A DNA stretch of 64,000 nucleotides from an uncultured cyanobacterium (GTDB lineage Bacteria > Cyanobacteriota > Cyanobacteriia > Pseudanabaenales > Pseudanabaenaceae): the NCBI GenBank assembly GCA_963703315.1, contig OY969811.1, positions 2,208,001 through 2,272,000 on the forward strand, read 5' to 3'. Below are positions 1,954 to 53,623 of this stretch, piece by piece. Both the position numbers and the translations under genes were made by a program. Below the pieces are notes generated by a model. It was not told the origin of the DNA. It searched no databases and saw only the letters and a program-made list of their open reading frames with translations. How positions within the stretch are numbered: position 1 is the stretch's first letter; every line of letters starts with the position of its first letter.

Positions 1954-3585
1954 GTGGTTGAGCCTATGTATGCTAGTAGTCGAGAAGTACCAATCGAACA
2001 GGCGATCATCCGCAATCCTCTCATAATTTCCGCAGATGCAACCATTGCCGATGCGATCGCCCTCATGAGTGCCAGCAGTCAAACCTGTCACTTATCTTGT
2101 GATATCGACTCAGAAGCAAGTTTGCAATTAGCTCATGCTCAAAACAGTTGCATTTTAGTAACGGAGGGAAAAAAATTAATTGGCATTTTGACTGAGCGTG
2201 ACTTAATTAAATTTTGTGGTCAGCATAATGACACTGAAAATACAACTAAAAGTTTAGGGCAGAATCTCATCGAAACAGCGATCATCGAAGTGATGGTTTA
2301 TCCAGTCTATGCCCTATTGGAGTGGGAATTTACCGACATACTTGTACCAATCAATCGGTTTCATCGCTATAAAATTCGCCATTTACCCCTAGTGAATGAT
2401 CAAGGGGAAGTTGTCGGTTTACTCACCCATGAGAGTTTACGACAATTGCTCCGTCCCGTTGATATGTTGCGGTTGCGCCGTGTCAGTGAGGTATTAGTGA
2501 CACAGGTAGTCCATGCACAACCGACAGATTCAGTTACTAAGATTGCGAGCTTGATGGCAGAACAAGTTGTGAGTTCTGTAATCATCACAGAAACAAGAGA
2601 TGGAAGTTTGTTCCCTTTAGGAATTATTACTGAAGGAGATATCGTTCAATACCTTGCTCTAGAGATAGATCTCACGACAACACCAGCGCAAATAGTCATG
2701 AGTTACCCAGTTGCCTCTGTGGGAGCAGATGAAACCCTGTGGGCAGTACGAGAGATTATGCAGGAACGGATGATTAATCACTTAGTCGTCATTGGTACAA
2801 ATGGACAAATGGAAGGAATTGTGAGCCAGAGCGATCTGCTCAAGACCTTGCAACCTAATGAGATTTACAAATTAGTCTCGAGTCTAGAAAATAAGATGTC
2901 GAGGCTAGAGCAGGAGAAACTAGAGCTGTTGCAGAGTCGAAATAAATTATTGGAGAGTCAAGTACAGGAGAGTAATGCAGCGCTCATTGATGGCAACAAT
3001 ATATTTCAGCAATTTGCGGAAAACAATCGCGGGGCGATCGTGATTCGTGATGTTAGTTCTGGCAAGTTCTTGTATGTGAGTCCTGCATACGCCGAAATAT
3101 GGGGTAAGTCCTGTGAAAGCTTATATGAAGATCCTCAGTCTTGGATGATGTCTATTCATCCTGAAGATAGCGATCGCATTATTCAAGGCTACACATCAAA
3201 AGCAAATACTGGTTTTTTTAGTGAAGAATATCGAGTTGTTCGTCCGAATGGACAAATATGTTGGGTATGGGGAAGATATTTTCCGATTAAGAATGCCTAT
3301 GGAGAAACCTATCGGATTGCCGCAATTATTGAAGATATTAGCGATCGCAAATATGCCGAAATAGCCTTAATGCAGCGTAAACAATCCGATGAGTTTATTG
3401 CCAATATGAGCCGTGAACTACAGACACCGCTCAATGATATTTTGGGGATGTCTGAAGGTTTACTAGATGGTGTATTTGGGGAGCTTAATGAACAACAGCA
3501 GCGATCGCTATCTCTAATCCAAACTAGTGGTCAGCGTTTATTAGAGTTAATTAATAATGTTTTAAATGTCAGCGACTTATCATAG
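1954..3585 (+). CDS. CBS-domain (two pairs)/PAS/degenerate HisKA protein, no HATPase (pseudo-kinase)
   Basis: CBS motifs (LIGILTERDLIK, IRHLPLVN, LGIITEGDIV, EGIVSQSDLL); PAS/PAC (YVSPAYAEIWG, IHPED, EYRVVRPNG, EDISDRK). The H-box reads NMSRELQTPLN and the protein stops at the end of the DHp helices. Confidence 0.8.
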   Translation: MVEPMYASSREVPIEQAIIRNPLIISADATIADAIALMSASSQTCHLSCDIDSEASLQLAHAQNSCILVTEGKKLIGILTERDLIKFCGQHNDTENTTKSLGQNLIETAIIEVMVYPVYALLEWEFTDILVPINRFHRYKIRHLPLVNDQGEVVGLLTHESLRQLLRPVDMLRLRRVSEVLVTQVVHAQPTDSVTKIASLMAEQVVSSVIITETRDGSLFPLGIITEGDIVQYLALEIDLTTTPAQIVMSYPVASVGADETLWAVREIMQERMINHLVVIGTNGQMEGIVSQSDLLKTLQPNEIYKLVSSLENKMSRLEQEKLELLQSRNKLLESQVQESNAALIDGNNIFQQFAENNRGAIVIRDVSSGKFLYVSPAYAEIWGKSCESLYEDPQSWMMSIHPEDSDRIIQGYTSKANTGFFSEEYRVVRPNGQICWVWGRYFPIKNAYGETYRIAAIIEDISDRKYAEIALMQRKQSDEFIANMSRELQTPLNDILGMSEGLLDGVFGELNEQQQRSLSLIQTSGQRLLELINNVLNVSDLS

Positions 3586-3615: not shown

Positions 3616-5001
3616 TTATTGCCAAGTCTGACGAAATGCTTTGACCACTTGATCCATACCGACAGAACGAGAAGCTTTAAATAGAATCCGATCGCCTTTT
3701 TCCACTTTTTGTAAGAGGGTCTGCGTGATGTCGTCATAGGAATTACAGGCGATCGCATATTGGAGTGAGCCATTTGCACCCGCTAGAATTGCATCAGCCT
3801 CACCATCTGCCAAAATAATCGCTCCTTCTATTTTCAAATTACCAAGCTCTTTGCCTACTTGCTGATGTAAATGAGTAGACATTTCTCCTAGTTCTTTCAT
3901 CGTGCCGAGTACAGCCCAATGACGTTTAGCAGGCATATCCGCTAACTGTCGCAAAGCCGCTAACATTCCTTCAGGTGAGGCATTATAGGTTTCATCAAGA
4001 ATGACCACATCTTGAGGCAATTCGTATAACTGCGCTCGACCAAAGGGAAGATCTAATTTGTCAATTCCTTGCGTGGTTTTATGCCAATCAAGATTTAGGG
4101 CTTTGAGAACTGCTAAACCTGCCAAAAAGTTCAAAGCATTATGAATGCCGGGTAAAGGTAAATCCCAAGATAAATCACCGACATGAAGCCGATCATTAAT
4201 CAGTTCTCCATTAACATCACCAATACCCAATCCATAAGTAATCGTTTTACCTTGCCAAACCTTACTGGCGGTTTCTAATAATAGGGGATTGCTCGCATTG
4301 AGAACTGCTGTGCCATTTGCGGGAGTCTCGGCAAGTAGCTCACATTTGGCTTGGGCGATCGCCTCACGCGAACCCAATCTACCAATATGTGCAGTCCCCA
4401 CATTTGTGATCACACTTACCGTCGGTAAAGCTGTTCTGGCAAGGCGGGCGATTTCCCCTAAGCCGCGCATTCCCATTTCAACTACTACAAAATCATCGCG
4501 CTCTGGGGCGATCGCTAATAAAGTTTGGGCAACGCCAATGTCATTATTATGATTGGCTTGGCTTTTGTGAACTTGTTTATTGGTTGAGACATAGCCAGCC
4601 AACATACTCGCAATAATTTCTTTAGTTGTGGTTTTGCCCACCGAGCCTGTTATTGAGACTACGGGTCGAGAAAACTGCGATCGCCACCATCTTGCCAAAT
4701 CCTGATACGCCGTGAGGGGATCACTGACTGCAAGCAGGGGTAGTCCTTGCGCTGCTTCAGAATTTGCCCACTCATGAGTCACGATCGCCGCCACCGCACC
4801 CTGAGCAATCACCTGTGCCACAAATCCATGACCATCAAAATTTTCGCCAGTTAATGCCACAAATAACTCGCCAGCTTTGAGCTTGCGGCTATCGGAAACA
4901 ACACCCCTAATTTCTATATTGTCCTGTGCGTTTTCATCAATATTAGATACTGTTGCCGATGTAATGGCGATCGCTTGGCTGATCGTACAAATAAAGGTCA
5001 T
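3616..5001 (-). CDS. murF: UDP-N-acetylmuramoyl-tripeptide--D-alanyl-D-alanine ligase
   Basis: DSRKL..GELFVAL.GENFDGH, ITGSVGKTTTKE, EMGMRGLGEI, DETYNASPEGM, KASRSVGM. Start placed at MTFICT (5001) rather than 5091. Confidence 0.95.
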   Translation of the reverse strand: MTFICTISQAIAITSATVSNIDENAQDNIEIRGVVSDSRKLKAGELFVALTGENFDGHGFVAQVIAQGAVAAIVTHEWANSEAAQGLPLLAVSDPLTAYQDLARWWRSQFSRPVVSITGSVGKTTTKEIIASMLAGYVSTNKQVHKSQANHNNDIGVAQTLLAIAPERDDFVVVEMGMRGLGEIARLARTALPTVSVITNVGTAHIGRLGSREAIAQAKCELLAETPANGTAVLNASNPLLLETASKVWQGKTITYGLGIGDVNGELINDRLHVGDLSWDLPLPGIHNALNFLAGLAVLKALNLDWHKTTQGIDKLDLPFGRAQLYELPQDVVILDETYNASPEGMLAALRQLADMPAKRHWAVLGTMKELGEMSTHLHQQVGKELGNLKIEGAIILADGEADAILAGANGSLQYAIACNSYDDITQTLLQKVEKGDRILFKASRSVGMDQVVKAFRQTWQ

Positions 5002-5156
5002 GCTGGATTTTTTCTGTTCTGATCTGATCTGTTCTATTCTGAGCTTAAGATACATTGCTTCACATAGCAATCTGAAATGATTGATAACCAAAAAGAGTTG
5101 TGAAAGGCGTACCCGTAGGATGTGCCTTTCACAACTCTTTTTGGATTGCGATATTA

Positions 5157-6257
5157 TCAGGCTTCAGGTAGCACATCAGCACTAAACATTTCACTCAAAG
5201 CCGTGAGATAGGGGAGAAATGCTTGAATATGTTGCTCATCAAGATAAATATGCATTGCTTGATTAAGTAGTCTCAATAGAGTCCGCACCAGTTCCCAACT
5301 AACTTTTAGCGGTGGATAGAGCATGATGCAAAGGGGAAAAAGTTCTTGCTGAATTGCCGAGACACTTTTTTCTAGTACACATAGGCAGAGATACACTTGA
5401 AACATCTCAATATCACGCAGGCTGGAAATCCGCACCTGTGGTGAACTCAATACGCCGCTATGGCATTGATAGTCAGAATACATAATTAGGGTTTTCTGAG
5501 CAACCTGACGCGCAATCTCACTAGTTAGGGGTAGCAGATGGCGCACAGACTCTAGAGCAATGTCGTTGTAATCTAGATTGGCTGCCGCCTCATAGGAGCG
5601 CTGCAAGGGCATATAGAGATGATCATCGATAACTTTGAAGTACGAGTTCACCATTAAGCGCTCAAGGGATGGCAATGAATCAAGGAGCATTTGTCCACTG
5701 TAATGGAACTGCATACTCACAAAGCCAATCACGCGCGGATCAACTGATGTATATTTTTGGCGAATTTGACCGACCCCTTGGGCGATCGCTACAGATAATT
5801 GTCCAACAGTCGGTAATTGGGTATAGCTTTCGAGTTGCAGATTCCCCTCACTATTAGTCAAATTGATATTGATCAGGCGCGTTTCTGCATTCTCTGTATA
5901 AACCTTGAGAGCTTGCTCCAATAAAAAGCGTGAATCCGTCGCAATTTGCCAAGGATCGATGAGATCTGTAGAAATACCATGAGATTTTAACTGTCCCATC
6001 AGCAAATTCTCCGTCTTAGCCCATGCTTGAGCGCTAGAAAACCGTAAAGCTTGCAATAAACTTGCGGCGGTTGCAGCACGGCGTTCTGGACAGAGAATCT
6101 CTTCCAAATTATTAGATTTAACATCTTGTTTAGAAGAATCTGCTTGCAGATTTTGAATATATTTCTTTGCCCAAATATTTGCTAAAGAAGGCACAGAAGC
6201 AGTTGCCGCACTATTAAAATCATGAGTTAGATTATCTACAAGCGTGGGTCTGATCAT
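5157..6257 (-). CDS. Hypothetical protein with a C-terminal phycobiliprotein/globin-like domain lacking the chromophore Cys
   Basis: The segment LLPLTSEIARQVAQ...ISSLRDIEMFQVYL...LYPPLKVSW aligns by eye with allophycocyanin alpha ([13 protein letters not shown]...[13 protein letters not shown]...MYKSLGTP). Confidence 0.5.
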   Translation of the reverse strand: MIRPTLVDNLTHDFNSAATASVPSLANIWAKKYIQNLQADSSKQDVKSNNLEEILCPERRAATAASLLQALRFSSAQAWAKTENLLMGQLKSHGISTDLIDPWQIATDSRFLLEQALKVYTENAETRLININLTNSEGNLQLESYTQLPTVGQLSVAIAQGVGQIRQKYTSVDPRVIGFVSMQFHYSGQMLLDSLPSLERLMVNSYFKVIDDHLYMPLQRSYEAAANLDYNDIALESVRHLLPLTSEIARQVAQKTLIMYSDYQCHSGVLSSPQVRISSLRDIEMFQVYLCLCVLEKSVSAIQQELFPLCIMLYPPLKVSWELVRTLLRLLNQAMHIYLDEQHIQAFLPYLTALSEMFSADVLPEA

Positions 6258-38862: not shown

Positions 38863-39228
38863 TCAGCGTAGGTATCTGGTAAGAAACTCTAGTTGATTAT
38901 GCATATCTTGATCTGTTTTAGATTCAATAATTTTCATCAAGCCACGTAAGCGATCGCCAACTGCCGAAATCTTCTGTTGAATCAAAATAATCCCCGCATG
39001 GCTTTGACCACTGCCAATCAACTCAGTATGTAGTTGCATAAAATCACCAACATTACAACTACATATCACCCTTCCTTGAACAGATGCCCACTCAAGTTGT
39101 GCTTTGTCTGGTAAGCCTTCCCTATGTACATCAGAAACTGTAATTACATCTATATCACGAGAACGTAAAGCCCCTACTAATGCAGCTGACATTGTATCTT
39201 CATCAAGATATAAGCGAATTTTACTCAC
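38863..39228 (-). CDS. DUF5615 PIN-like putative toxin
   Basis: LYLDED, ALRSRDIDV, D..QLEWA...GRVICSCNVGDF, HAGIILI; overlaps the DUF433 gene by 4 bp. Confidence 0.85.
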   Translation of the reverse strand: MSKIRLYLDEDTMSAALVGALRSRDIDVITVSDVHREGLPDKAQLEWASVQGRVICSCNVGDFMQLHTELIGSGQSHAGIILIQQKISAVGDRLRGLMKIIESKTDQDMHNQLEFLTRYLR

Positions 39229-39524
39229 TTAGACACCTGCTGACTGTAATGGAGTTCCATTAATCTTTCATACTCAGAATCATCTACAGCTAAAATATGA
39301 TCAACCTCCTCTCTATTAGCATGATAATAAGTAAGCGCAGCATAGACTTGTGTAAGAGTTAAATGTTCAATTTCACGTGCGATATCCTCTGCGCTTAGTC
39401 CTGATTTCCACAAAGTAGCAATGCGTCCAACTGTAACACTTGTACCTGCAATGCGAGGACGATTTCCACCAATATCTGGGGCGCGGACGATAAGTGTACC
39501 AATATCAACAATAGTTGTCGTCAT
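39225..39524 (-). CDS. DUF433 putative antitoxin
   Basis: PDIGGNRPRIAGTSVTV, GLSAEDI, LTLTQVYAALTYYHANREE. Confidence 0.9.
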   Translation of the reverse strand: MTTTIVDIGTLIVRAPDIGGNRPRIAGTSVTVGRIATLWKSGLSAEDIAREIEHLTLTQVYAALTYYHANREEVDHILAVDDSEYERLMELHYSQQVSK

Positions 39525-39567
39525 AGTTTTAGAAGTCCTGTTGTTTGATTTATTAAAATTTAATAGA

Positions 39568-40050
39568 TTAATCTAATGGCAAATAATCTGTATCTAAAAC
39601 TTGTTCTATTGTAAATGGGCTAGTTTCAGGAAAATCATATATGGATAAACCTGTCTCAATTGATGCCATTTTGTGAGCAGTTTGATAGCATTCTGAAAAT
39701 ACTTCTTGATAGTAACGTTGTAGACTAGGACTACGTTTAAAGGCTTTTTTTAAGCGATTACGATGTTCAAAAATGGTTAATAGCCAACTACGCGATCGCA
39801 ACTGTGACTGATAACAATATTTTAATAAATGCATCAAAATTATTTCTAAATTACTCTCAAGCGCATCTCTTTGACTCCCACTCATATCATCAAGTTCTTC
39901 TAATAAATTAGGAATATCAAGTTCTGTTAATTTACCTTCTCGCAAAAGCTGCATCATCGTTTCAACCCATAGACAATAGTCTTGATTGTAGATATCGATA
40001 TTTTCCGTAGGTAATGGTGACAAGACTGCATCGGTAATTGTAAGGTTCAT
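39568..40050 (-). CDS. DUF29 family protein
   Basis: YNQDYCLWV, LDIPNLLEELDDM, LMHLLKY.YQ, SW..TI.EHR, SPSL, PFTIEQVLD.DYLP. Confidence 0.92.
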   Translation of the reverse strand: MNLTITDAVLSPLPTENIDIYNQDYCLWVETMMQLLREGKLTELDIPNLLEELDDMSGSQRDALESNLEIILMHLLKYCYQSQLRSRSWLLTIFEHRNRLKKAFKRSPSLQRYYQEVFSECYQTAHKMASIETGLSIYDFPETSPFTIEQVLDTDYLPLD

Positions 40051-43055: not shown

Positions 43056-44249
43056 TTATGCAGACAAAATGATGATTTGCTGCTTTTGGAGCGATCGCAC
43101 ATCTTCTAAACTTGCCTCAACGGACTGCAAAATCTGCGCGACAGTTTTACCTTGATGTTGAGGATCATCACTAGCTAAGAGGAACTTCCACGCCGCATCA
43201 CTAATCGTCACTAATTGATAGTTGTAGTCAAAGAAGTTCGTACTATCGCGCCAGCCGTAAATACAGGGACTAGGAGTAGGAATAGCTGCTAATAGTTCGT
43301 CATCAATTTGCCAAGTTTGCTTCGCGATCGGTGGACGACCTAAAAAGAACTCATAATGGGAAATCGTGTGGGGATCAAGGACTTCAATCAGGCGATAGCG
43401 CTGACGTTCGGTGAGATGTTGCGATCGCTCAATTAGGTCAGGGGCTTTATCAAGCAAACGATTTAAGTCCCATACTTGAGGATTAGAGAAACCAAGAAAT
43501 TCTAAACCTGAAGCATCAATTAATTCAAAGAGAGTATTTACATTGTAATTAATTTCTTGGGGATGCACATACATATCCGCAAAACAAGCATCTTGACGAT
43601 TTTCATCTGCCCAGCGCTCTTGCTCACGGCGACGCAGGGCATTAGTTTCAGGCAGATTGGCGAATATTTCTCTACCAATTTTCACACCATCGACATAATC
43701 GCCACGCTGATCACCTTGCAATAAGGCGATCGCCTCTTGCATCAACCGAATTTCCCAACGACCTAATTCACCATAGACAAAAATATGCAGTAAGCCTCCA
43801 TCAGCTAACTTACTCGCTAATGCCTGAATACCACGAATGGGGTCGGATGTGTGATGCAGCACGCCTACCGAGTTAATCAAATCAAATTTGCCTTCGAGTT
43901 GGTCAGCATCAAACAAACTAAGGTGATGGAATTCAACTCTGTTTGCCCCTGATCTTTTGCAGCGCTCCTTGGCAACAGCAAGGGTTCCCTCACTCAGATC
44001 GATACCGACAACGTTTGCTTCGGGATTGAGATGGACTAAGTATTCTGTACTTACGCCCGATCCACAGCCAGCATCAAGAATCCGAATATTATCTTTAGCG
44101 GGTTTGCGTCCAGTGCAAAAACTATAGGCAGCTTGCCAATTCCAACGCCAGTTATAACCGGGAGGTGGCTCATCAAGGATTGGTTCTGGAGGAAAGGGAT
44201 AGGTATTATAGAGACTGGCAACGGCGGCGCTGACCTTGGGATCTGACAT
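43056..44249 (-). CDS. Class I SAM-dependent methyltransferase (conserved cyanobacterial)
   Basis: LYNTYPFPPEP, ILDAGCGSG, GIDLS, FDLINSVGVLHH, FADMYVHPQE. Start placed at MSDPK. Confidence 0.88.
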   Translation of the reverse strand: MSDPKVSAAVASLYNTYPFPPEPILDEPPPGYNWRWNWQAAYSFCTGRKPAKDNIRILDAGCGSGVSTEYLVHLNPEANVVGIDLSEGTLAVAKERCKRSGANRVEFHHLSLFDADQLEGKFDLINSVGVLHHTSDPIRGIQALASKLADGGLLHIFVYGELGRWEIRLMQEAIALLQGDQRGDYVDGVKIGREIFANLPETNALRRREQERWADENRQDACFADMYVHPQEINYNVNTLFELIDASGLEFLGFSNPQVWDLNRLLDKAPDLIERSQHLTERQRYRLIEVLDPHTISHYEFFLGRPPIAKQTWQIDDELLAAIPTPSPCIYGWRDSTNFFDYNYQLVTISDAAWKFLLASDDPQHQGKTVAQILQSVEASLEDVRSLQKQQIIILSA

Positions 44250-44375
44250 AAATAAATTTTTTAATTGTTTAAATCTTTTAGGAATATAAACCACAAAGGT
44301 ACAGCGACACAAATTTGAAATATAGCAAGTTTAATCTCACCTTATGTATAGCAAAAGAAGGGAAAGAAAGGACGT

Positions 44376-44582
44376 GCTGCGAACTCCACTCGCGCATTAA
44401 AAAATTTACCTCGCTATTTGGAGTTTATTGAGGCTTGTGTAGTTGTTCTCATTGAGAGAAAAACATCTGTTGTTTATACACAAACCCATTTGGCTGTGAA
44501 GCGCAAAGGGCGACCAATTCCGATGAATGATGTTTGGATTGCGGCGCAATCACCTCCAAAACCCGATCGCCTATTCCCTTAA
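44376..44582 (+). pseudogene. VapC/PIN toxin internal fragment
   Basis: My translation is AANSTRALKNLPRYLEFIEACVVVLIERKTSVVYTQTHLAVKRKGRPIPMNDVWIAAQ. There is no 5' start (in-frame TAG at 44349), and homology ends where the double-HIP1 repeat region begins. Confidence 0.8.
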
Positions 44583-44654
44583 ATTAAACAGCGATCGCAA
44601 CTCAACACCCACAAACGCGATCGCCTATTTCTACCAACATCAAACAGCGATCGC
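44561..44654 (+). repeat. Double-HIP1 cassette-boundary repeat, copies 1 and 2
   Basis: CCGATCGC-CTATTCCCTTAAATTAAACA-GCGATCGC (44563-44598) and GCGATCGC-CTATTTCTACCAACATCAAACA-GCGATCGC (44617-44654). Confidence 0.9.
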
Positions 44655-44733
44655 TTAACCAGAAACTCAATCTAGATCGCAAAACTTATATACTAAGGAA
44701 TACAATTAGATTAGTAACATTCAAATAACGAAT

Positions 44734-44934
44734 ATGCTACAAACTCTTTGGGCTACTGTTCAAAAAGGAAAAATTGAGTTGTTAGAGGCTTCAGAACTGG
44801 CAGAAGGGACAAAGGTATTAGTGACTGTACTTTCTGATGACTATGAGTCCGAGTTTTGGCTTCGGGCGAGTCAGACATCACTTGATGCAGTTTGGAATAA
44901 TACTGAGGATGATATCTATGCCCAATCACTCTAA
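44734..44934 (+). CDS. Small antitoxin-like protein
   Basis: WATVQKGKIELLE...EGTKVLVTVL...SLDAVWNNTEDDIYA; directly upstream of, and overlapping, the PemK-like gene start. Confidence 0.7.
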   Translation: MLQTLWATVQKGKIELLEASELAEGTKVLVTVLSDDYESEFWLRASQTSLDAVWNNTEDDIYAQSL

Positions 44935-45248
44935 AAACATCATCCATTTTAGTTCGATATCCATTTTCAGATTTGTCTAAAGCGAAGGTTCGTCCTGCGG
45001 TTATTGTCAATGCACCACATAACTCTCAAGATATTCTAATTGTGCCATTAACCAGCAAAACAGGCTCTTTGCTTGATGTAGAGTTTGTCCTTGCTGACTG
45101 GGCGGCAGCAGGACTTAATGTTGTTACAGCAGTTAAGCGTGGTATCTATACTGTAAATGGAAGTTTAGTTATTAAGACTGTTGGGAAGTTGGCTGATGTT
45201 GATATTGAGAAACTTGAGCAATCTTTGAGAACTTGGCTAGGTTTATAA
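44918..45248 (+). pseudogene. PemK/MazF-family toxin, apparently frameshifted near 44945
   Basis: ATG 44918 gives MPNHSKNII and stops at 44978. The shifted frame gives ILVRYPFSDLSKAKVRPAVIV...ILIVPLTS. Removing one base restores a typical full-length PemK N-terminus. Confidence 0.75.
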
Positions 45249-45255
45249 TTACAAT

Positions 45256-45290
45256 CCGATCGCCTATTTCCCACATTAAACAGCGATCGC
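45256..45290 (+). repeat. Double-HIP1 cassette-boundary repeat, copy 3
   Basis: CCGATCGC-CTATTTCCCACATTAAACA-GCGATCGC begins 7 bp after the PemK stop. Confidence 0.9.
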
Positions 45291-45367
45291 TTAAACGGTC
45301 AAAATCTTACTTTCAAGTTGGTTTATAATTGTTAAGTATATTTCTACTTTATAGAGGCGCAGAGTAT

Positions 45368-45589
45368 ATGAGGTACTGGGAAAGTCTAGATGCTATAGAA
45401 AGAGAACCTTATAAAGTGAGTGGTGCTTGGGTATTTCGGAAAACGAGAGTTCCAGTTTCGGCTTTGTTTGAAAATTTGCGGGATGGTGCAACAGTAGAGG
45501 AATTTTTGGAGTGGTTTCCGCCTGTGCAGCGATCGCAAGTTGAGGCTGTCCTGAACTATGAGCTTGATATGTTGGCTGAGGCAGCTTAG
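45368..45589 (+). CDS. DUF433 putative antitoxin
   Basis: IEREPYKVSGAWVFRKTRVPVSALFENLRDGATVEEFLEWFP. Start placed at the ATG at 45368. Confidence 0.9.
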   Translation: MRYWESLDAIEREPYKVSGAWVFRKTRVPVSALFENLRDGATVEEFLEWFPPVQRSQVEAVLNYELDMLAEAA

Positions 45590-45592
45590 ATT

Positions 45593-45910
45593 ATGAGAAT
45601 TCTTTTCGATCAGGGAACTCCTGTACCTTTGCGGCAATATTTGATAGAACATTCTGTGACAACAGCCTATGAAGAGGGTTGGTCTAATCTGTCGAATGGA
45701 GATCTGCTCAAATCTGCTGAAGATAAGGGATATCAAATATTTGTGACAACGGATAGAAATTTACGCTATCAACAGAATTTGAGCGATCGCCAGATTGCTA
45801 TTGTTGTTTTGCTCTCCACCTCATGGCCAAAAATTCGGACGCAGACTGAAAAAGTTTGTGGTGTTATCAATGCAATTGAAATAGGCGATTATACTGAAAT
45901 CTCCATCTGA
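45593..45910 (+). CDS. DUF5615 PIN-like putative toxin
   Basis: MRILFDQGTPVPLR, GWSNLSNGDLL, FVTTDRNLRYQQNL; starts 3 bp after DUF433. Confidence 0.88.
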   Translation: MRILFDQGTPVPLRQYLIEHSVTTAYEEGWSNLSNGDLLKSAEDKGYQIFVTTDRNLRYQQNLSDRQIAIVVLLSTSWPKIRTQTEKVCGVINAIEIGDYTEISI

Positions 45911-45954
45911 TTTACATGGCAACAATAGAGATCACCACTCACCACCCACAAAAC

Positions 45955-45990
45955 CCGATCGCCTATTCCCTCAAATCAAACAGCGATCTC
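45955..45990 (+). repeat. Double-HIP1 cassette-boundary repeat, copy 4
   Basis: CCGATCGC-CTATTCCCTCAAATCAAACA-GCGATCTC, preceded by CACCACCCACAAAAC like copies 1 and 2. Confidence 0.88.
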
Positions 45991-46053
45991 CACTCATATC
46001 CACAAACCCATACAATTAAATAAGAATTTAGTAAGTACCCCAAAATATACACA

Positions 46054-47889
46054 ATGTCACAATCTAAACCTAAACTACTATTTGAATCGGTAGATTTTGA
46101 CAATTATCAATGGAGAGAGGTATTAGACCAAACGAGTCAAAAGCAATGCACGAATTACAGTGAGGCATTTAGGGCAAAAGCCTATCAGTTATCTAATGAC
46201 ACTGTAGCTCAAGATGTTTTTATGTTTTTGAGTGAGATTACATCTGTTGTGATGGAGCCACTAGAAACACAAAACACGTCCTATATTGTCAAGGTAATAT
46301 CTGAGTCATTATCTGAAAAACACCTTTCGATATTACGTGAGTTAGTGGGTAAAATTGATGATCCTGAAATGAGAGCAAGGGTAGCTGATATTCTTTGGAT
46401 TTGCAGAAAACAAGATCCAGATCTAGGTAGACCAATCAAAATGGCTAAAGAAGCACTAAAAGCATATCTTCAATCAGCTAGAAATCTTGAGAACGTAGAC
46501 GACTGGACAAAATGTTTTACAAGACTAAAACGAGCTGCACAGTTAGCCCCAATAATTGATGGCAAAAAAAAGACTGAAATGCTCCGAGAGGTTGTTGGAT
46601 ATATCAATGAAGTTATTTGTCGCTATGAACTTGTTCCCAATGAGTTTTTAACTGGATGTGTAATGGAAGTATTGCAAGAAGATTTGAGCAAAAGTCTTAC
46701 TTCTTTATCATCGGATCTGTCAAATACAGAACAATATGCAGTGGTTGCTGCAAAAAAAGCATTGATTGCTGACAGCATACAAAATTATCACCAAACTTTT
46801 TATCAAAAAATAGCATATCTTCAGATAGAAAGTAAATGGCATAAGATAGCTAAAGATAAAGATGCTGAACGTAATACAAAAATGCAGATAGGAGAAGTCC
46901 ACGTTTGGTATGCTGAACAGGCATTAGTTGTGAATGAGCCTAATTCTTACTCAGTAGCTGCTGGTCGAATTAAAGAGGCAATCGAAACTTTTCAAAACAT
47001 TGAAGATACATTTGGACGAAGATCAGATTCTTCCGAACGCATTCAAGCTTTACACAAGCAGATGCTCGCTTACCAGAAGAAATCTATGTCACAAATGGTT
47101 AGTGTTCCCCTCACTGAACCAGAAAAATTTTGTGAGCAAGAGATGCAAAAACAGGCAAGAGATTTAGTTAAAGGAAAGAATCTACGTGATTCTCTGTATG
47201 TTCTAGCATTTCAATATCGACTAATTTGCAAAACTGAAGATCTCCAAGAAAAAGCAAAGTCTCATTTAATTCCAAAAGATTTTATTGATGAAGAAGGAAA
47301 AACAAAAGCTATTAGCGGAATCGATAAGGATGATTTGAAGGACACGATGTTCAATAATTTAAAATTTTATCAGCGTTGGTATGGACTAAATTTTATTGTG
47401 CCTGCTTGCCGACAGATTTGTTCTGAACATGATGTAACTCTAGAAAATTTGTCTTTTATTGTCCAAGAAAACCCATTTATTCCAAAAGGACGTGAATTTC
47501 TATATTTAAAAGGTTTAATAGCTGGCTTGCAAGAAGATCCAGTAATTGCTGCACATCTACTGATTCCACAACTAGAAAATTCTCTACGTCATATTTTAAA
47601 GGAGAAGAGTTTTATCACATCCAAGAGAGAGACAGTTCAGGATGATTTTCTTCTTCATGAAGTTTTAAATACACCTGATTTGATTCAGGTTTTAGATAAG
47701 GACATAATTTTTACTTTAAAGGGATTATTAGTTGAACGAATGGGATCTAATCTTAGAAATGAGGTTTGTCATGGATTATTGAATTATGGTCGATTTTTCT
47801 CACCTGAACTAGCATATCTCTGGTGGCTAACACTTTTCTTGTGTCTTGTACCAACTTATAGCCATTGGGCTGATGAGAACAAAGAGTAG
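46054..47889 (+). CDS. DUF4209-like protein with C-terminal HEPN-type RxxxxH motif
   Basis: RARVADILW; NPFIPKGRE; AAHLLIPQLENSLRHIL; GSNLRNEVCHGLL; YLWWLTL. AT-rich, with no HIP1 seen. Confidence 0.75.
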   Translation: MSQSKPKLLFESVDFDNYQWREVLDQTSQKQCTNYSEAFRAKAYQLSNDTVAQDVFMFLSEITSVVMEPLETQNTSYIVKVISESLSEKHLSILRELVGKIDDPEMRARVADILWICRKQDPDLGRPIKMAKEALKAYLQSARNLENVDDWTKCFTRLKRAAQLAPIIDGKKKTEMLREVVGYINEVICRYELVPNEFLTGCVMEVLQEDLSKSLTSLSSDLSNTEQYAVVAAKKALIADSIQNYHQTFYQKIAYLQIESKWHKIAKDKDAERNTKMQIGEVHVWYAEQALVVNEPNSYSVAAGRIKEAIETFQNIEDTFGRRSDSSERIQALHKQMLAYQKKSMSQMVSVPLTEPEKFCEQEMQKQARDLVKGKNLRDSLYVLAFQYRLICKTEDLQEKAKSHLIPKDFIDEEGKTKAISGIDKDDLKDTMFNNLKFYQRWYGLNFIVPACRQICSEHDVTLENLSFIVQENPFIPKGREFLYLKGLIAGLQEDPVIAAHLLIPQLENSLRHILKEKSFITSKRETVQDDFLLHEVLNTPDLIQVLDKDIIFTLKGLLVERMGSNLRNEVCHGLLNYGRFFSPELAYLWWLTLFLCLVPTYSHWADENKE

Positions 47890-48022: not shown

Positions 48023-48460
48023 TTAAACTTTGGTTTCCTCATCGTATTCATTCTCATCCTCATCATCTTCATTCTCATTATCTTCATCCTCATCTTGAGT
48101 ATCAGAAGGAATATTGAGAACCCAATTACTTGAATCTAGAGCTAAAAACAAAGCATCTTTCCAGCTAACAGACGTATTGTAACCATTTTTATGCTCAACT
48201 AATTCTTTCAAAAGACTTTGTTTAAAACGACACTTGATAGAAGTTAAGCTTTCTTGTTTAACTTTACCTATACTGAGAAAGTCTTGAAGGATATTAGCTG
48301 AAGAAACTAACGGGTTATACGAATTTTCATCAAGAATCTGTTCCATCAGTTCATCGTACGAGAAATGAATTTCGACGGATGCCTTTTCTTCAGCCGATTG
48401 AACTAATGTAGATATTGGCACTGAGAACCAGATTGTTTTACGCTTTTCCATATTGAGCAA
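48023..48460 (-). CDS. Hypothetical protein with acidic C-terminal tail
   Basis: 145-aa ORF ending QDEDEDNENEDDEDENEYDEETKV; no family recognised. Confidence 0.55.
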   Translation of the reverse strand: MLNMEKRKTIWFSVPISTLVQSAEEKASVEIHFSYDELMEQILDENSYNPLVSSANILQDFLSIGKVKQESLTSIKCRFKQSLLKELVEHKNGYNTSVSWKDALFLALDSSNWVLNIPSDTQDEDEDNENEDDEDENEYDEETKV

Positions 48461-48650
48461 GAATTAAACAGTATTGATACTTTGGGAAATTTATCTCAAG
48501 TAATGATCATTACAAAAAAGTTACGCTCTTTGGCATCGGAAGACCGCCCTAATCACAAGATTGTAAACTTTTTCAAAGTCACCAAGATGATTATCACACT
48601 AAATTTGATTATGTTAACCTAAAAATGCTTTGCCTACAAAAACGATCAAA

Positions 48651-48911
48651 ATGTCAACTAATAGCCCAATCATATTTGCTGAAGAATTAGCCAATGAGCT
48701 AGACAAAATCCCTGAACAATATTGGTCAAACCTTTTGCAGATTATTCGTTTGTTTCGTGAAAGCGTTACCCCAGTATCAGAAAGCCATTCTCAAGATCCT
48801 GCGATTATCGAAGCGATCGAAGATTTAGGGCTTGTCCATGCCATGTTAGAAGTTAAGGATGAAATGCCTCTTAGTCTCCAAGAAGCACTTGCTGAAATGG
48901 AAAGAGCATGA
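48651..48911 (+). CDS. Putative antitoxin
   Basis: LLQIIRLFRESV...IEDLGLVHAMLEVKDEMPLSLQEAL; ATGA overlap with the RelE gene. Confidence 0.7.
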   Translation: MSTNSPIIFAEELANELDKIPEQYWSNLLQIIRLFRESVTPVSESHSQDPAIIEAIEDLGLVHAMLEVKDEMPLSLQEALAEMERA

Positions 48912-49177
48912 ACGTCAATTATCTTCCCAGTTTTCTGAAAGAACTTAAAGCTCTTAGAAGTACACCTTACTTCAAACCCATAAACACACTCGTATTTGAG
49001 GAAATCCCTAAACTTGCTGGGTTGGCAGATATCAAAAATGTCAAAAAGCTACAGGGGTATGAAAATGCTTATCGAATCAAAGTAGGAGATTATCGAATTG
49101 GCGTGATCTTTGAAGATGAAACCGTTACATTTTGTAGAGTATTGCATCGCAAAGAAATTTATCGCTATTTTCCATAA
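48908..49177 (+). CDS. RelE/ParE family toxin
   Basis: SFLKELK, VKKLQGYENAYRIKVGDYRIG, RVLHRKEIYRYFP. Confidence 0.92.
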   Translation: MNVNYLPSFLKELKALRSTPYFKPINTLVFEEIPKLAGLADIKNVKKLQGYENAYRIKVGDYRIGVIFEDETVTFCRVLHRKEIYRYFP

Positions 49178-49232: not shown

Positions 49233-49532
49233 TCACAATGCTTGCTCTAGCTTGCCAATCTTAACCAAGAGATCCTTTCGCAACTCACATAAACTAAACC
49301 ACTCAAACAGATCCATCTCATCCCCTAATGCTCCTGATTCAAATTGTTTTTGAAACTGATGAGAATCAAGCCTATAGTTCTGTTCAAACTTGCTAATATC
49401 ACGGTCATAAACAGCTAATTTCTGTCGATGACGATTTAACATTACATTGAGTAATTGACTCAGAATCCGATCTAAATCGTTGCGATCGCTACAATTTGCA
49501 TTAAGTAGCTCTAATTTATCTAATGTATTCAT
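49233..49532 (-). CDS. Small antitoxin-like hypothetical protein with no adjacent partner
   Basis: KFEQNYRLDSHQFQKQFESGALGDEMDLFEW resembles a motif seen in small cyanobacterial TA-associated proteins. Start placed at MNTLDK. Confidence 0.55.
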   Translation of the reverse strand: MNTLDKLELLNANCSDRNDLDRILSQLLNVMLNRHRQKLAVYDRDISKFEQNYRLDSHQFQKQFESGALGDEMDLFEWFSLCELRKDLLVKIGKLEQAL

Positions 49533-49582
49533 GGCATATACACATAACTCATTTAACATTATACCAACGGTATTTTTGCCTA

Positions 49583-49615
49583 TAAAAAAGGCGGCGCAAT
49601 GCGCCGCCTTTTTTA
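49583..49615 (-). terminator. Terminator-like hairpin after chlH
   Basis: TAAAAAAGGCGGCGC-AAT-GCGCCGCCTTTTTTA lies 3 bp past the chlH stop. Confidence 0.75.
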
Positions 49616-49618
49616 GTT

Positions 49619-52600
49619 TTACTCTACACCTTCAATGCGGTCTTCGAGTTCTTGATATAGCTCACGCAATCTATCCAGATTCTCTTCGCTGGTTTCCCAA
49701 TAGCCGCGACCATTGACTTCTAGAAGAGTACCGACAATCTTACGGAACGAATTGGGGTTGAGATTTTTGAGGCGATCGCACATCTCTTTATCGTTTACAT
49801 AGACATCATTGACATCTTCGTAAACCCAGTTATCCACTGCTCCAGCCGTCGCTGACCAGCCCATTGTGTTCACAAGGCGCTTGGAGATTTCGCGTACACC
49901 TTCATAACCACTCTTGAGCATTCCCTCATACCACTTGGGATTGAGAATCTTGGTGCGGGTATCGAGGCGGACTGTCTCAGTCAGGGTGCGGACTTGAGCA
50001 TTGGCGGTGGTGGTGTCAGCGACAAAAGAGGCAGGTTTTTTGCCATCTTTGCGGAGACTACCAACGAGCTTAGTGGGGTCAGAGTCGAAGTAGTGGGATA
50101 CATCGGTGAGACTGATTTCTGACGAGTCCAAATTCTGGAAGGTCATGTCAACGGTCTTTAGTGATGCTTCGTAAAGCTGACGCTGTTGGGTGTTGCTGAC
50201 ATTGCCACCAAAGGCGAAGGACTTGCGCGATAGATACATCTGTTGCAATTCTTCTTCGTTTTCCCATGTGCTGTTTTCTACAGCGAGGTTAACGTTAGAG
50301 GAATAGGAACCCGATGAGTTACTGAAGACGCGAGTTGCCGCTTGGTTAATGGTTAAACCAAATTCTTCTGCTTGGGCGATCGCGTGTTTGCGGACAAAGT
50401 TCATTTCCAAAGGTTCATCGGCTTCGGCTGCCATTCTCACGGCGCGATCGATCAAGTCCATTTGATTAACGAATAGGTCACGGAATACGCCTGAACAGTT
50501 GACGACGACATCAACGCGAGGTCTACCAAGTTCTTCGAGAGGAGTTAACTCCAAGCGATTAATGCGTCCAAGAGCATCGGGCATGGGCTTCACGCCGATC
50601 ATGCAGAGAACTTGAGCGAGGGATTCGCCATAGGTCTTGATGTTGTCGGTTCCCCAGAGGACGACAGCGATCGTTTCGGGATAGACTCCATTGTTGTCTT
50701 GACGCTGACGCTCCAAAAGGCGATCGACTACGGTTTTCGCTGCTTGCACTGCGGCACTCGTAGGGATCGAGTTAGGATCGAGGGCGTGCATATTCTTGCC
50801 AGTGGGCAGCACGAGGGGATTACGGATCGGATCTCCCCCTGGGCTAGGAGTGATGTAATCGCCTTCGAGAGCTTTAATCAATCCGCCGAGTTCATTGTCA
50901 GCAACAACTTGTTTGAGACAGAACTCTAGGAATTCAAACAGAGGCTTGATGTCGTCTTTATTAATATTGGGATAGCCATTCTCTTGGAAAACTTCAATCC
51001 AAGGTTCAGTTTTACCCATTCTAAAGAAGTTGAGAACTGAGAGTTTAGAAACTCTGCCATCGTCATCAGCTTTTGCTTTGACCAATGCACCTACGGCTTT
51101 ATTCGCTAAAGCACGGATGTTTGCCAAGAGTTCCACATCGGCGTAAATACCCTTGTCGCTGGATTTGTAGAGTTGCTCGATATCGCACCCGATCGCTTCA
51201 CAGATGATTCGCAACAGAGACTTCATGTTATCTTCGGGGCGATCAAAACTGGCGATGCTAGTCAATACATCGGTGACATCTTCCACTTTGGGAGGTTCGC
51301 CAACAACGTGTAAGCCGCAAGGGAGAACGCGGGATTCGATTTCCATCAGCTTGTTGTAAACCTGACCGATGACATTATCGCGCTCTTCTAGATCCATTTC
51401 CTTAGCGTCTTTTTCAGGAAGAGTTACGTCTTTGTCCAAATTGACCAGACGCACCTTATCCATAATCGTGTTGGTGATTTGGATACCACGACCACCGAGG
51501 CGCAAATCTTTGTAAGACGCAATCAGTTCACTCAGTTCCTGCAAATTACGGCTCAAGCCAGCATTTTCAGGCGCAGGGGTGATGTAGCTGATGATCGTGG
51601 CATAACCGCGTCGTTTAGCGATCGTGGCTTCGGAAGGATTGTTGACAGCGTAGTAATAGATGTTGGGCAAAGCGCCAATTAAACTATCGGGATAGCAATC
51701 GCCCGACATTCCTACTTGCTTTCCTGGCATAAATTCCATTGAGCCATGAGTACCGAAGTGGAGGACGGCATCGGCTCCCCAGATATGGTTGAGATAGGTG
51801 TAGTAAGCGACAAAGCCGTGATGGGGGGATGCAGACTTGCTAAAGAGCAAGCGCATGGGGTCGCCTTCATAGCCAAAGGTGGGCTGGACACCTACGAAGA
51901 TATTTCCATATTGCTTACCGTAAATGAGCAGGTTCTGTCCATCGGAATTGAGATGTCCAGGGGCAGCACCCCATTGTTCGATAATGCGATCGACGTAGGG
52001 AGTATTGGCTTCATATTCGGGAACGGACATCTTGTAAGCAACGTTCAGTTCAGGACTGCCAACCATGGCTTCAGGATTGTGCAAGATATCGGACATCATG
52101 TCGTGGGATGTTTTTGGCAAACCTTGCACATCATAACCATTGTTGCCGAGAGCTTCTACGACCTTATGAATGGAAGAGAATACATCCAAATAGGCGGCGG
52201 TTCCAATATTGCCTTTATCAGGAGGGAAACTAAAGATCGTGATGGCAAGTTTCTTTTCATGGCGGGGCTTGCGGCGGAGATTTGCCCACTTGATCGCACG
52301 GTTGGCGATGGTTTCAAGGCGATCGCCTAAAGCATGGGAACGACCAGTCGCACTATCACGCCCCGAAAGCACAATTGGATCGAGTCCGCCATCAAGCTCA
52401 GGCAAAGCAACTTGTAATGCTACTTGCACAGGATGCAAACCAAGATCGCTATCTTGCCATTCTTCCGTAGTTTGGAAAACGAGGGGCAGGGCTACCATAT
52501 AGGGACGGTTGAGCTTTTCGAGGGCTTCGATCGCTTTTGGATGATCTTGCTTAGCAGGACCTCCAACGAGGGCAAAACCTGTCAGTGAAACGACGCTATC

Positions 52601-53623
52601 CACGATCGCCCGATCCTTTTGCTTAGGATCGTAAAAATATTCTTCAACTGCCTTTGAGAAATCTAAGCCCCCATTGAATACAGAAATGACTCTAGCCCCA
52701 AGGGATTCCAATTCCTGCACCATCGCCACATAATGCGCGTCATCGCCTGTGACTAAGTGCGTTCTTGCCATCAACAGCCCCACACATGGCGCAAGGGGAT
52801 CTTTCATGTCATCGGGAATATCGGTACGGGCATTAAACCATGCCAAATAATCGGCAGTAGTCTCGAACATTTTGGGCGCGAGAGGATGCCATAGCCCCAT
52901 ATCTAAATAGGTGACAGGATCTTTAATAATTAGAGTCCCCGAACCCGTCTCCTTTGCCCTTGCTTTGACACTGGGCAAATAATTTTGCGCCAACATCAAC
53001 AGGAAGTTTTCCAGATTTTCGGTCGATCCGCCTAGCCAATATTGGAAGCTCAACATAAAGTTACGAGCATCCTGCGCCTTATCCATTGGCATATATTTGA
53101 GAATCTTGGGCAGGGTCTGTACGACCTTGAGCATACTGTCTTGAAAAGAACTGCCCGATTTCTCTTTGCGCTTCCGCATGAACTGAGCGATCGCACTCTT
53201 AGACTGTCCCAGATTTTCCATGCTGAAGCTACCCATTTTATTCAGGCGCATCACCTCTGGCATCGATGGGAATACTACACAAGCGGATAGGCGATCGCGG
53301 TGGGGCTGCACTGCCTGAGCAATCTTAGTTGCCATATCATCGATAAAAATCAACGAAGCAATAAACATATCGGCTTCAGCGACATCATCTTTAAAGGCTT
53401 CATAATTTTCGGGGCTACGCAACTCTTCGATTAAATAACCACTTACCTCGATCGCTAGGTTAGGGTTGTTCTTATTAATTGACTTTACAGCCGCCGACAT
53501 AGCGCTCTGATATTGGGGTTCCAGCACTACATAGACCAACTTCATTAAGACCCGACCCTGTAGATTTTCGGGAATGATACGTCTACCAGATAATGTTGCG
53601 ATCGGTGGCATAGAAGTGAACAT
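49619..53623 (-). CDS. chlH: Magnesium chelatase subunit H
   Basis: [63 protein letters not shown]; 1334 aa. Confidence 0.98.

Follow-up and report, generated by a model that had tools for sequence, protein, structure and literature searches.

Tandem HIP1 tracts between exchangeable toxin–antitoxin cassettes in an uncultured cyanobacterium of the Pseudanabaenaceae

The chromosome of an uncultured cyanobacterium of the Pseudanabaenaceae raises the question of how small toxin–antitoxin (TA) and defence genes come to be lined up as separate modules between copies of a repeat built on the octamer HIP1 (highly iterated palindrome 1). The window analysed here is a stretch of 64,000 nucleotides (assembly GCA_963703315.1, contig OY969811.1, positions 2,208,001 to 2,272,000; G000:C1:2208001-2272000 in our genome set) from a complete genome of 4.57 Mb with 42% GC and 8231 HIP1 octamers. 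An earlier note, made from the letters of the window, had read the repeat as a site at which small defence modules are gained, shuffled and lost. The linkage of the repeat to TA genes and the position of breakpoints within it support this reading, and we hold with high confidence that tandem tracts of HIP1 units are the joints of an exchangeable pool of cassettes.

The four copies first described, at 44563, 44617, 45256 and 45955 on the + strand, with spacers of 20, 22, 19 and 20 bp, were recovered, and a one-mismatch scan of both strands found exactly these four in the window, with none at 38.8-39.5 kb. The unit itself had to be corrected. It is not a dyad of two HIP1 words, the real structure being an alternating tandem repeat of two units of ~27 bp, so that the two adjacent copies read as separate repeats form one tract. 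Each unit consists of a HIP1-type octamer and a G-free spacer. The X unit starts with CCGATCGC-CTATT and ends with AAACA, the Y unit starts with GCGATCGC-CCCT and ends with AAAC, and the two alternate in directional tandem tracts of 1 to about 56 units. The period is 25-29 bp in 497 of 521 units, and the spacers comprise 43% C, 39% A, 18% T and 0.3% G, the last figure being partly built in because the detector required G-free spacers. Conservation within the unit is highest at the HIP1 core, and copy number varies by whole dimers of 53-55 bp. To compare arrays, 24 stretches were picked for matching modules of the window, together with the arrays of its own genome; one stretch had no tract, leaving 23 arrays. 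All tracts lie on one strand in 23 of the 24 stretches, the exception being one single-link tract, and no reverse tract was found in 21 metagenome loci. The last tract of an array is not significantly the longest (p 0.10).

Several known kinds of repeat were considered and set aside. A CRISPR array is excluded by the head-to-tail units, which are only ~72% alike, by the intervals between tracts, which are genes of 0.5-0.8 kb, and by the lack of an Rfam family, a scan of four array loci having returned two chance matches far below the gathering score. Miniature inverted-repeat transposable elements and repetitive extragenic palindromes were rejected because the tracts show no terminal inverted repeats and, outside the core word, no stable stem-loop: in single-strand folds HIP1 pairs only with HIP1, giving stems of 7-9 bp on the C/A-rich strand. 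G-quadruplexes were likewise dismissed, the median G4Hunter score of the tracts (1.52) being that of spacer shuffles; the canonical pattern occurs in 48 of 103 tracts, versus 16% of shuffles. To our knowledge cyanobacteria have no Rho, on which ground a reading of the tracts as Rho-utilisation sites was put aside.

The repeat is not spread uniformly through intergenic DNA. The strict pattern occurs ten times genome-wide, four times in the window and six times in one cluster 60 kb upstream. A looser definition gives 34 tracts with at least two links, against 0, 0, 1 and 1 in four HIP1-preserving shuffles; three lying inside long open reading frame (ORF) calls were dropped, and 21 of the 31 retained have a TA marker within the proximity cut of 800 bp (108 markers in this genome, from six Pfam families). 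Counted by intergenic gaps, a marker lies this close in 19 of 29 gaps that bear a tract and in 157 of 2546 that do not (odds ratio 29, p 3e-16).

The segments between tracts behave as a shared and shuffled pool. Across the 23 arrays, 26 shared cassette types account for 108 of 122 inter-tract segments, with a median identity of 92%. A cassette is a self-contained module of 480-780 bp, in most cases a TA pair that carries a -10 hexamer of its own, and the contents are mostly TA genes (ParE/RelE, YoeB, HicAB, BrnT, PemK, PIN, MNT-HEPN, DUF433/5615 and DUF6883/4926), with Uma2 and DUF29 besides. When the array of the window was compared by BLAST with 48 genomes of the genus, blocks of 86-92% identity began and ended at tracts, from ~44549-44566 to 45290 for cassette K1 and from ~45251-45259 to ~45988-46011 for K2. 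All 428 cassette matches keep one polarity relative to the tract, although the genes face either direction. The earlier statement that all modules lie on the + strand is correct for this array and fails in general, only 16 of 26 types being called + (K2 was mis-scored as minus). Order is random: 75 of 79 adjacent cassette pairs are distinct, the 4 repeated adjacencies compare with 4.09 expected from shuffling within arrays, and cassette type does not predict array position (p 0.30). In metagenomes, 61 of 65 segments from the 21 loci match the same pool, none reversed, a match that is only partly independent because some of these loci overlap or equal genomes already in the sample. The hexamers reported after each boundary (TACAAT at 44701, TATAAT at 45324, TACAAT at 46011) were confirmed; a -10 hexamer is found in the first 110 bp of 20 of the 26 types, against 3 of 26 at the 3' end and an intergenic background of 32%, and a full sigma-70 promoter scan showed no enrichment (18 sites versus 16.6 in shuffles).

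Two side observations concern the cargo. A 325-aa TPR-like gene forms a 1120-bp cassette beyond the TA repertoire in locus L320 (oriented 4109-5229), between direct repeats of ~50 bp with two HIP1 words, and cassette K10 (DUF6883/DUF4926) recurs in another family (L313:4614-5285, genome G149) at 92% over 672 bp.

As the earlier note had predicted, the breakpoints of gain and loss between strains fall in the repeat, both as mapped junctions and as ends of homology blocks. Locus L095 (genome G050) and contigs L317, L333 and L336 are 99.6% identical over 7.9 kb and differ by K7 and K10, a two-cassette indel of 1731 bp. In its empty form, present in two separate assemblies, the left tract passes cleanly into the right one across a shared interval of 7 bp, GATCGCC, which would be too short for a k-mer mis-join artefact. 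L320 and G045 differ by the one-gene cassette of 1120 bp, with a crossover interval of 17 bp containing HIP1; a further two pairs are set apart by a single dimer (55 and 53 bp), and their intervals of 14 and 23 bp both contain the core. Among 16 pairs examined, identity stops inside tracts in L092/L328, L092/L327, L327/L328, L148/L321, L148/L326 and L150/L332, while three alignment ends between near-identical loci lie outside tracts. The indels of 42 and 15 bp in the helicase gene of L097/L318 are ordinary coding duplications without GATC. Cassette turnover is ongoing between strains that are 99% identical. Tract-to-tract joints in read mapping were rejected as evidence of excision, their sides being short and derived from other repeat copies, and missing read cover over K1 in run X2 was not taken as evidence.

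Gene flow signals are consistent with such turnover. At fourfold sites, the K1 and K2 genes of the source genome are 0.82 identical to those of other species (1583 sites, 21 genomes), a value inflated by the use of best BLAST hits as the cassette copies, against 0.50 for rpoC2, 0.49 for metH and 0.73 for icd. In chlH, which bounds the array on the right, fourfold identity over all pairs of 35 genomes is 0.46-0.54 across the 5' half and increases toward the array, to reach 0.79 over the final 80 codons; this gradient is an indirect measure of recombination in the flank, and rpoC2 (0.45-0.63) and metH (0.44-0.57) are flat except in their first codons. A test like the pairwise homoplasy index detected recombination inside all four cassettes tested (p 0.0005-0.019). 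Copies of the same cassette share tract sequence solely in the adjacent unit on each side (p 0.006 and 0.002), and units are 0.716 alike within an array, as they are between genomes, versus 0.747 within a tract. The limitation of tract likeness to the adjacent unit, together with this equality within arrays and between genomes, speaks for a pool spanning the genus, with crossing over or conversion within the tracts.

The array also occupies a fixed place. Alignment of the interval between the methyltransferase gene on its left and chlH, as first suggested, proved unsuitable: the order is not kept, chlH lying outside the fetched flank (3.5-16 kb) in all 20 relatives, and chlH was therefore taken as the anchor. 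A tract lies 1.3-5.6 kb past the chlH stop in 20 of 25 genomes with at least 9 kb of flank (41 stretches examined), none reversed, and five shorter chlH contigs also carry one. These arrays hold from 0 to 5 or more cassettes, and their left flank is different in nearly every genome. The slot between the last tract and chlH takes a single, larger anti-phage system; it contains Gabija (G060, G001), Lamassu (G009), Shedu (G023), PsyrTA (G061), PDC-S49 (G048) or, in the window, PDC-S39; 18 of 36 slot proteins match PADLOC and 18 match nothing there.

Concerning mechanism, we consider it rather probable that host recombination of incoming DNA uses the HIP1 tracts as joints. Cassettes would be exchanged by the host machinery acting on DNA acquired through natural transformation; one side of the incoming fragment would be held by long homology, in a shared cassette (~92%) or in the 3' end of chlH, and the tract would provide the other joint, a short one with a tendency to resolve at the HIP1 core. 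We favour one long anchor and one short joint because neighbouring tracts share little, the longest exact match having a median of just 17 bp and the aligned length a median of 71 bp at 89% (125 pairs). This arrangement resembles homology-facilitated illegitimate recombination in transformable bacteria. A single orientation would follow from the tract as a whole not being a palindrome, and random order from the equivalence of all tracts; arrays would escape rapid deletion because their units are degenerate, and TA addiction may help to retain cassettes, by analogy with integrons. The genes comEC, dprA and recA have open frames.

A number of observations weigh against this interpretation. The mapped junctions number just four, two of them clean cassette junctions and two changes of unit number; such a sample does not suffice to prove a preference for HIP1, since no part of the unit is better conserved than the core and intervals tend to hold it anyway. 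The shared lengths given above are marginal for plain RecA recombination. The association with TA genes is weak in the converse direction, only 19 of the 108 markers lying near a tract and 89 not. The choice of best hits favours the cassettes in the synonymous comparison; chlH is likewise high over its first ~55 codons (0.85), and icd, beside a tract cluster of the source genome, is without a 3' gradient and has high values over its whole length (0.61-0.75), so that high synonymous identity is not unique to cassettes. Finally, an intact-looking tyrosine recombinase, described below, is core in the genus.

The monomeric isocitrate dehydrogenase gene icd (L232-L261) was found with this query in 35 of 48 genus genomes, and its median synonymous identity of 0.73 hints at lateral spread of icd itself.

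The tracts could instead be true sites of site-specific recombination. An unlinked enzyme of the host would then cut them at the HIP1 core, in the manner of XerCD at pdif modules; the candidates are the recombinase just mentioned or some HIP1-directed nuclease or recombinase. Such an enzyme would account for the 1731-bp indel having resolved in the 7-bp core interval despite a longer perfect match one unit further, and for most cassettes starting directly after the closing HIP1 of an X unit (78% of left-hand units are X). The candidate, a protein of 507 aa with two integrase domains (L130:5115-6638, at 1.754 Mb), is the sole PF00589 match over the cut-off in the source genome, a weak one lying at 4.368 Mb; it is Xer-like while scoring below the XerC and XerD cut-offs, occurs in 46 of 47 genus genomes, and has in its C-terminal domain the residues R-K-H-R-H-Y, presumably the catalytic motif. 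Its gene is, however, 500 kb from the array. The co-distribution with a recombinase that the earlier note had envisaged does not appear, since outside the genus 1 of 10 genomes with tracts and 12 of 175 others gave a match to the protein (E<=1e-40; a genome unmatched by this query may still have the gene), and only its C-terminal ~300 aa were matched there. Neither attC nor dif sites were detected: none of 148 tracts has the complementary RYYYAAC..GTTRRRY pair that we take for the attC boxes, and in the 11-6-11 symmetry of dif the best arm complementarity, 4-8 of 11, equals that of shuffled tracts. Moreover, 8231 genomic HIP1 sites would demand a further specificity signal, and tract lengths of 1-56 units with random order suit a non-specific process. 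Although HIP1-linked site-specific recombination and insertion of the repeat SDR5 within HIP1 are among the evidence cited in the available portion of PMC4390886, we judge this alternative unlikely. A gene at 4.367 Mb (L126:5586-6833) beside another tract subtype, in which TetR is fused to a degenerate integrase-like domain, divergent from a fatty-acid desaturase gene and under the PF00589 cut-off, was judged a coincidence.

It is also conceivable that the tracts are a selfish or mutational minisatellite in tolerant accessory DNA, merely marking boundaries, while TA modules gather by recombination of flanking genes at hotspots free of mobile genetic elements (MGEs). The chlH gradient would suit double recombination at flanking core genes, as proposed in the part of PMC5635113 available; the higher likeness of units within a tract than within an array is what slippage would leave; and several other subtypes of tract are found at about 15 sites, in part next to single genes, most TA genes having no tract. 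Fixed polarity, a closed pool with tracts on both sides, random order and clean junctions inside tracts would nevertheless remain unexplained, and a double crossover in two fixed core genes is unavailable because nearly every genome has its own left flank at the chlH array. We regard this possibility as quite improbable. A relic integron array (a cluster of attC sites lacking an integron integrase, CALIN) with decayed attC sites is suggested by cassette size, TA content and co-oriented sites, which resemble those of chromosomal integrons, and cyanobacteria do carry integrons according to the portion of PMC4889954 at hand. The attC-box result, folds of HIP1 with HIP1 only, tandem sites of variable copy number and current turnover between near-identical strains have already largely refuted it, as has the lack of any integron integrase over the cut-off (the best TIGR02249 match, 500 kb from the array, scores 32 bits against 265), and it retains hardly any probability.

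With host recombination at the tracts as the preferred reading, the array of the window can be followed from left to right. A gene for a SAM-dependent methyltransferase (43056..44312, − strand; Pfam) forms the left flank and, in the neighbourhood of 20 relatives, is not a fixed neighbour of the array. It is followed on the + strand by a vapC (PIN) remnant of cassette K17 at 44374..44548, 175 bp truncated at both ends, whose 3' end is fused directly into tract 1; it matches four intact copies at 89-93% by blastn, the PIN match being made on an intact copy. Tract 1 (44551..44680, +), of alternating X and Y units, contains the first two repeat copies. Cassette K1 (44681..45250, +) carries its -10 hexamer, a putative antitoxin of 66 aa (44734-44934) and a pemK/mazF-like toxin gene (44918-45248). 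Tract 2 (45256..45290, +) is a single X unit, the third copy, and cassette K2 (45291..45927, +) contains, after its hexamer, DUF433 (45368-45589) and a PIN-like DUF5615 gene (45593-45910). The final tract 3 (45928..45990, +), of Y and X units, includes the fourth copy and precedes the terminal-slot defence gene (46054..47889, +), which encodes 611 aa with DUF7380 and DUF4209 (PADLOC PDC-S39, E 5e-176). The module assignments made previously stand for PemK, DUF433, DUF5615 (under the Pfam cut-off), DUF7380 with DUF4209, and the vapC piece. Two of them needed qualification: PemK is correctly named while its gene is not intact, being frameshifted near 44944 where 11 of 12 copies are open, and the DUF4209 module is bounded by a tract on its left and by none on its right. 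Since vapC is doubly truncated and pemK frameshifted, the array of the window is decaying.

The DUF4209 protein has near its C-terminus an R-x4-H motif (RNEVCH), which we take to fit a HEPN nuclease. No relative was found in the metagenome scan; in one metagenome run, contigs at a depth of 119-159 match the gene at ~99%, and one of them links the ParE end to the chlH end. A homologue in the Merismopediaceae (L316:5770-6000) is preceded by three HIP1-like words ~30 bp apart, and the other two homologue loci (L314, L315) are without a tract. Beyond the gene lie an ORF of 145 aa with an acidic C-terminal tail and no family match (48023..48460, −), a RelB-like/ParE pair (48630..49177, +), repeated at 94% identity after the sister array 60 kb upstream, and an ORF of 108 aa (49233..49559, −) with a weak TumA/PDC-M44A match below cut-off, common but variable beside chlH. 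A perfect, bidirectional terminator-like hairpin at the chlH stop (49582..49615) belongs to a small dispersed family of 14 strand-hits, and one metagenome contig joins the ParE end straight to it, omitting the 108-aa ORF. The fixed right anchor of the hotspot is chlH itself (Mg-chelatase H; 49619..53623, −). Elsewhere in the window, a DUF433/DUF5615 pair with a DUF29 gene (38863-40050) has no tract.

The sister array (C1:2188.3-2198.1 kb; L001 4300-14100) has the same X/Y tracts and is larger, comprising in order Uma2, DUF6883/DUF4926, a YoeB pair, a DUF2283 pair, a BrnT pair, two ParE pairs, DUF2513, an 1189-aa helicase-methyltransferase and the RelB/ParE copy. Other G-free HIP1 tract subtypes with unit sequences of their own lie in the same chromosome at ~61k, 484k, 1370k, 2731-2747k, 2809k, 3021k, 3457k, 3472k, 3586k, 3671k, 4290k, 4367k and 4510-4522k, mostly beside TA pairs, frequently where a core gene has its 3' end (pfl, acnB, ftsH, ftsX, icd) and in some cases beside single genes; they are possibly separate cassette pools. 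A 37-bp direct repeat that starts with HIP1, contains G and differs from the X/Y tract flanks a GmrSD gene (L131:1157-1180, 3146-3180), and similar copies occur at 2731-2747 kb.

The exact X unit is nearly specific to the genus, with 10 and 12 matches in two of its genomes and one each in 2 of 399 others, while a generic pattern of three HIP1 words with G-free spacers was found in all 15 genomes of the genus and in 10 of 185 outside it. The arrangement thus returns in other cyanobacterial families, built on other unit sequences. In 16 stretches from these ten genomes, co-oriented tracts separate TA modules in L298, L300, L302, L303, L308 and L309. G082 and G103 (family f22) have arrays that end in a long tract, variable genes, among them in G082 an MrcB-HNH nuclease, and the chlH 3' end (71% identical protein), with other unit sequences. 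In G504 the array is closed by a restriction-modification pair together with glutamate synthase. Two loci were not counted as arrays: L310, next to a Csm6-like gene, which resembles a CRISPR array with HIP1 in the repeat, and L313, in which tracts lie on both strands. The tract pattern had no match in viral contigs and none in plasmids.

Taken further, these data allow a tentative proposal, to which we give somewhat less than an even chance: several cyanobacterial families may possess an integrase-free counterpart of the integron, in which tandem HIP1 tracts are dedicated joints where a HIP1-directed host activity, probably tied to methylation and natural transformation, inserts, removes and reorders defence cassettes of a community pool. 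If so, HIP1 would have a concrete function and the tract would be a native, programmable site for gene stacking. In any case HIP1, an unexplained word, is linked to an observable product of recombination, and the tract offers a search handle for new defence genes, half of the chlH slot proteins having no PADLOC match. Should plain RecA recombination be responsible, the system would be a variant of MGE-free hotspots, and the repeat-jointed pool would still be undescribed in the literature searched. We found no description of tandem HIP1 tracts delimiting cassettes in the open full-text literature; subscription papers, including the original paper on small dispersed repeats (SDR), lay outside the search, and an earlier mention is possible.

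Among known systems, single dispersed HIP1 octamers have been associated with smtB excision, plasmid recombination in Synechococcus 7002, SDR5 insertion and enhanced transformation (as cited in PMC4390886 and PMC13756078, in the portions available). Crossovers or insertions at HIP1 and a link to DNA uptake are common to those cases and ours; the accessible text describes neither tandem HIP1 tracts nor cassette arrays, and the word 'tandem' is absent from that of PMC4390886 and PMC5861425. MGE-free hotspots, as far as the available part of PMC5635113 describes them, share a fixed locus by a core gene, fast turnover of defence genes and the lack of an integrase, and perhaps a recombination signature in the flanking gene; here, in contrast, just the chlH flank is fixed and an internal repeat splits the cargo into single exchangeable cassettes, and the word 'repeats' is absent from the accessible main text of that paper. 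Core defence hotspots offer a related comparison (PMC10250203, available in part). The dif modules of Acinetobacter plasmids are also TA-rich, shuffled by unlinked host functions and bounded by sites of ~28 bp, but according to the accessible part of PMC13141974 these pdif sites, of the 11-6-11 XerC/XerD type, alternate in inverse orientation and permit inversion, whereas the HIP1 tracts are all direct, tandem and chromosomal, without 11-6-11 symmetry, and no inversion was seen. Chromosomal integrons and CALIN elements come closest in having small TA-rich cassettes between co-oriented related sites, shuffled and shared, with uptake by transformation proposed (PMC4889954 and PMC12614218, in the parts available). 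Unlike them, the tracts are without IntI, attI/Pc and attC hairpins or boxes, the HIP1 joint is a variable-number tandem repeat, the array has no position bias and the cassettes bring their own -10 hexamers. The system thus works like an integron array yet belongs to neither the integron nor the dif-module family.

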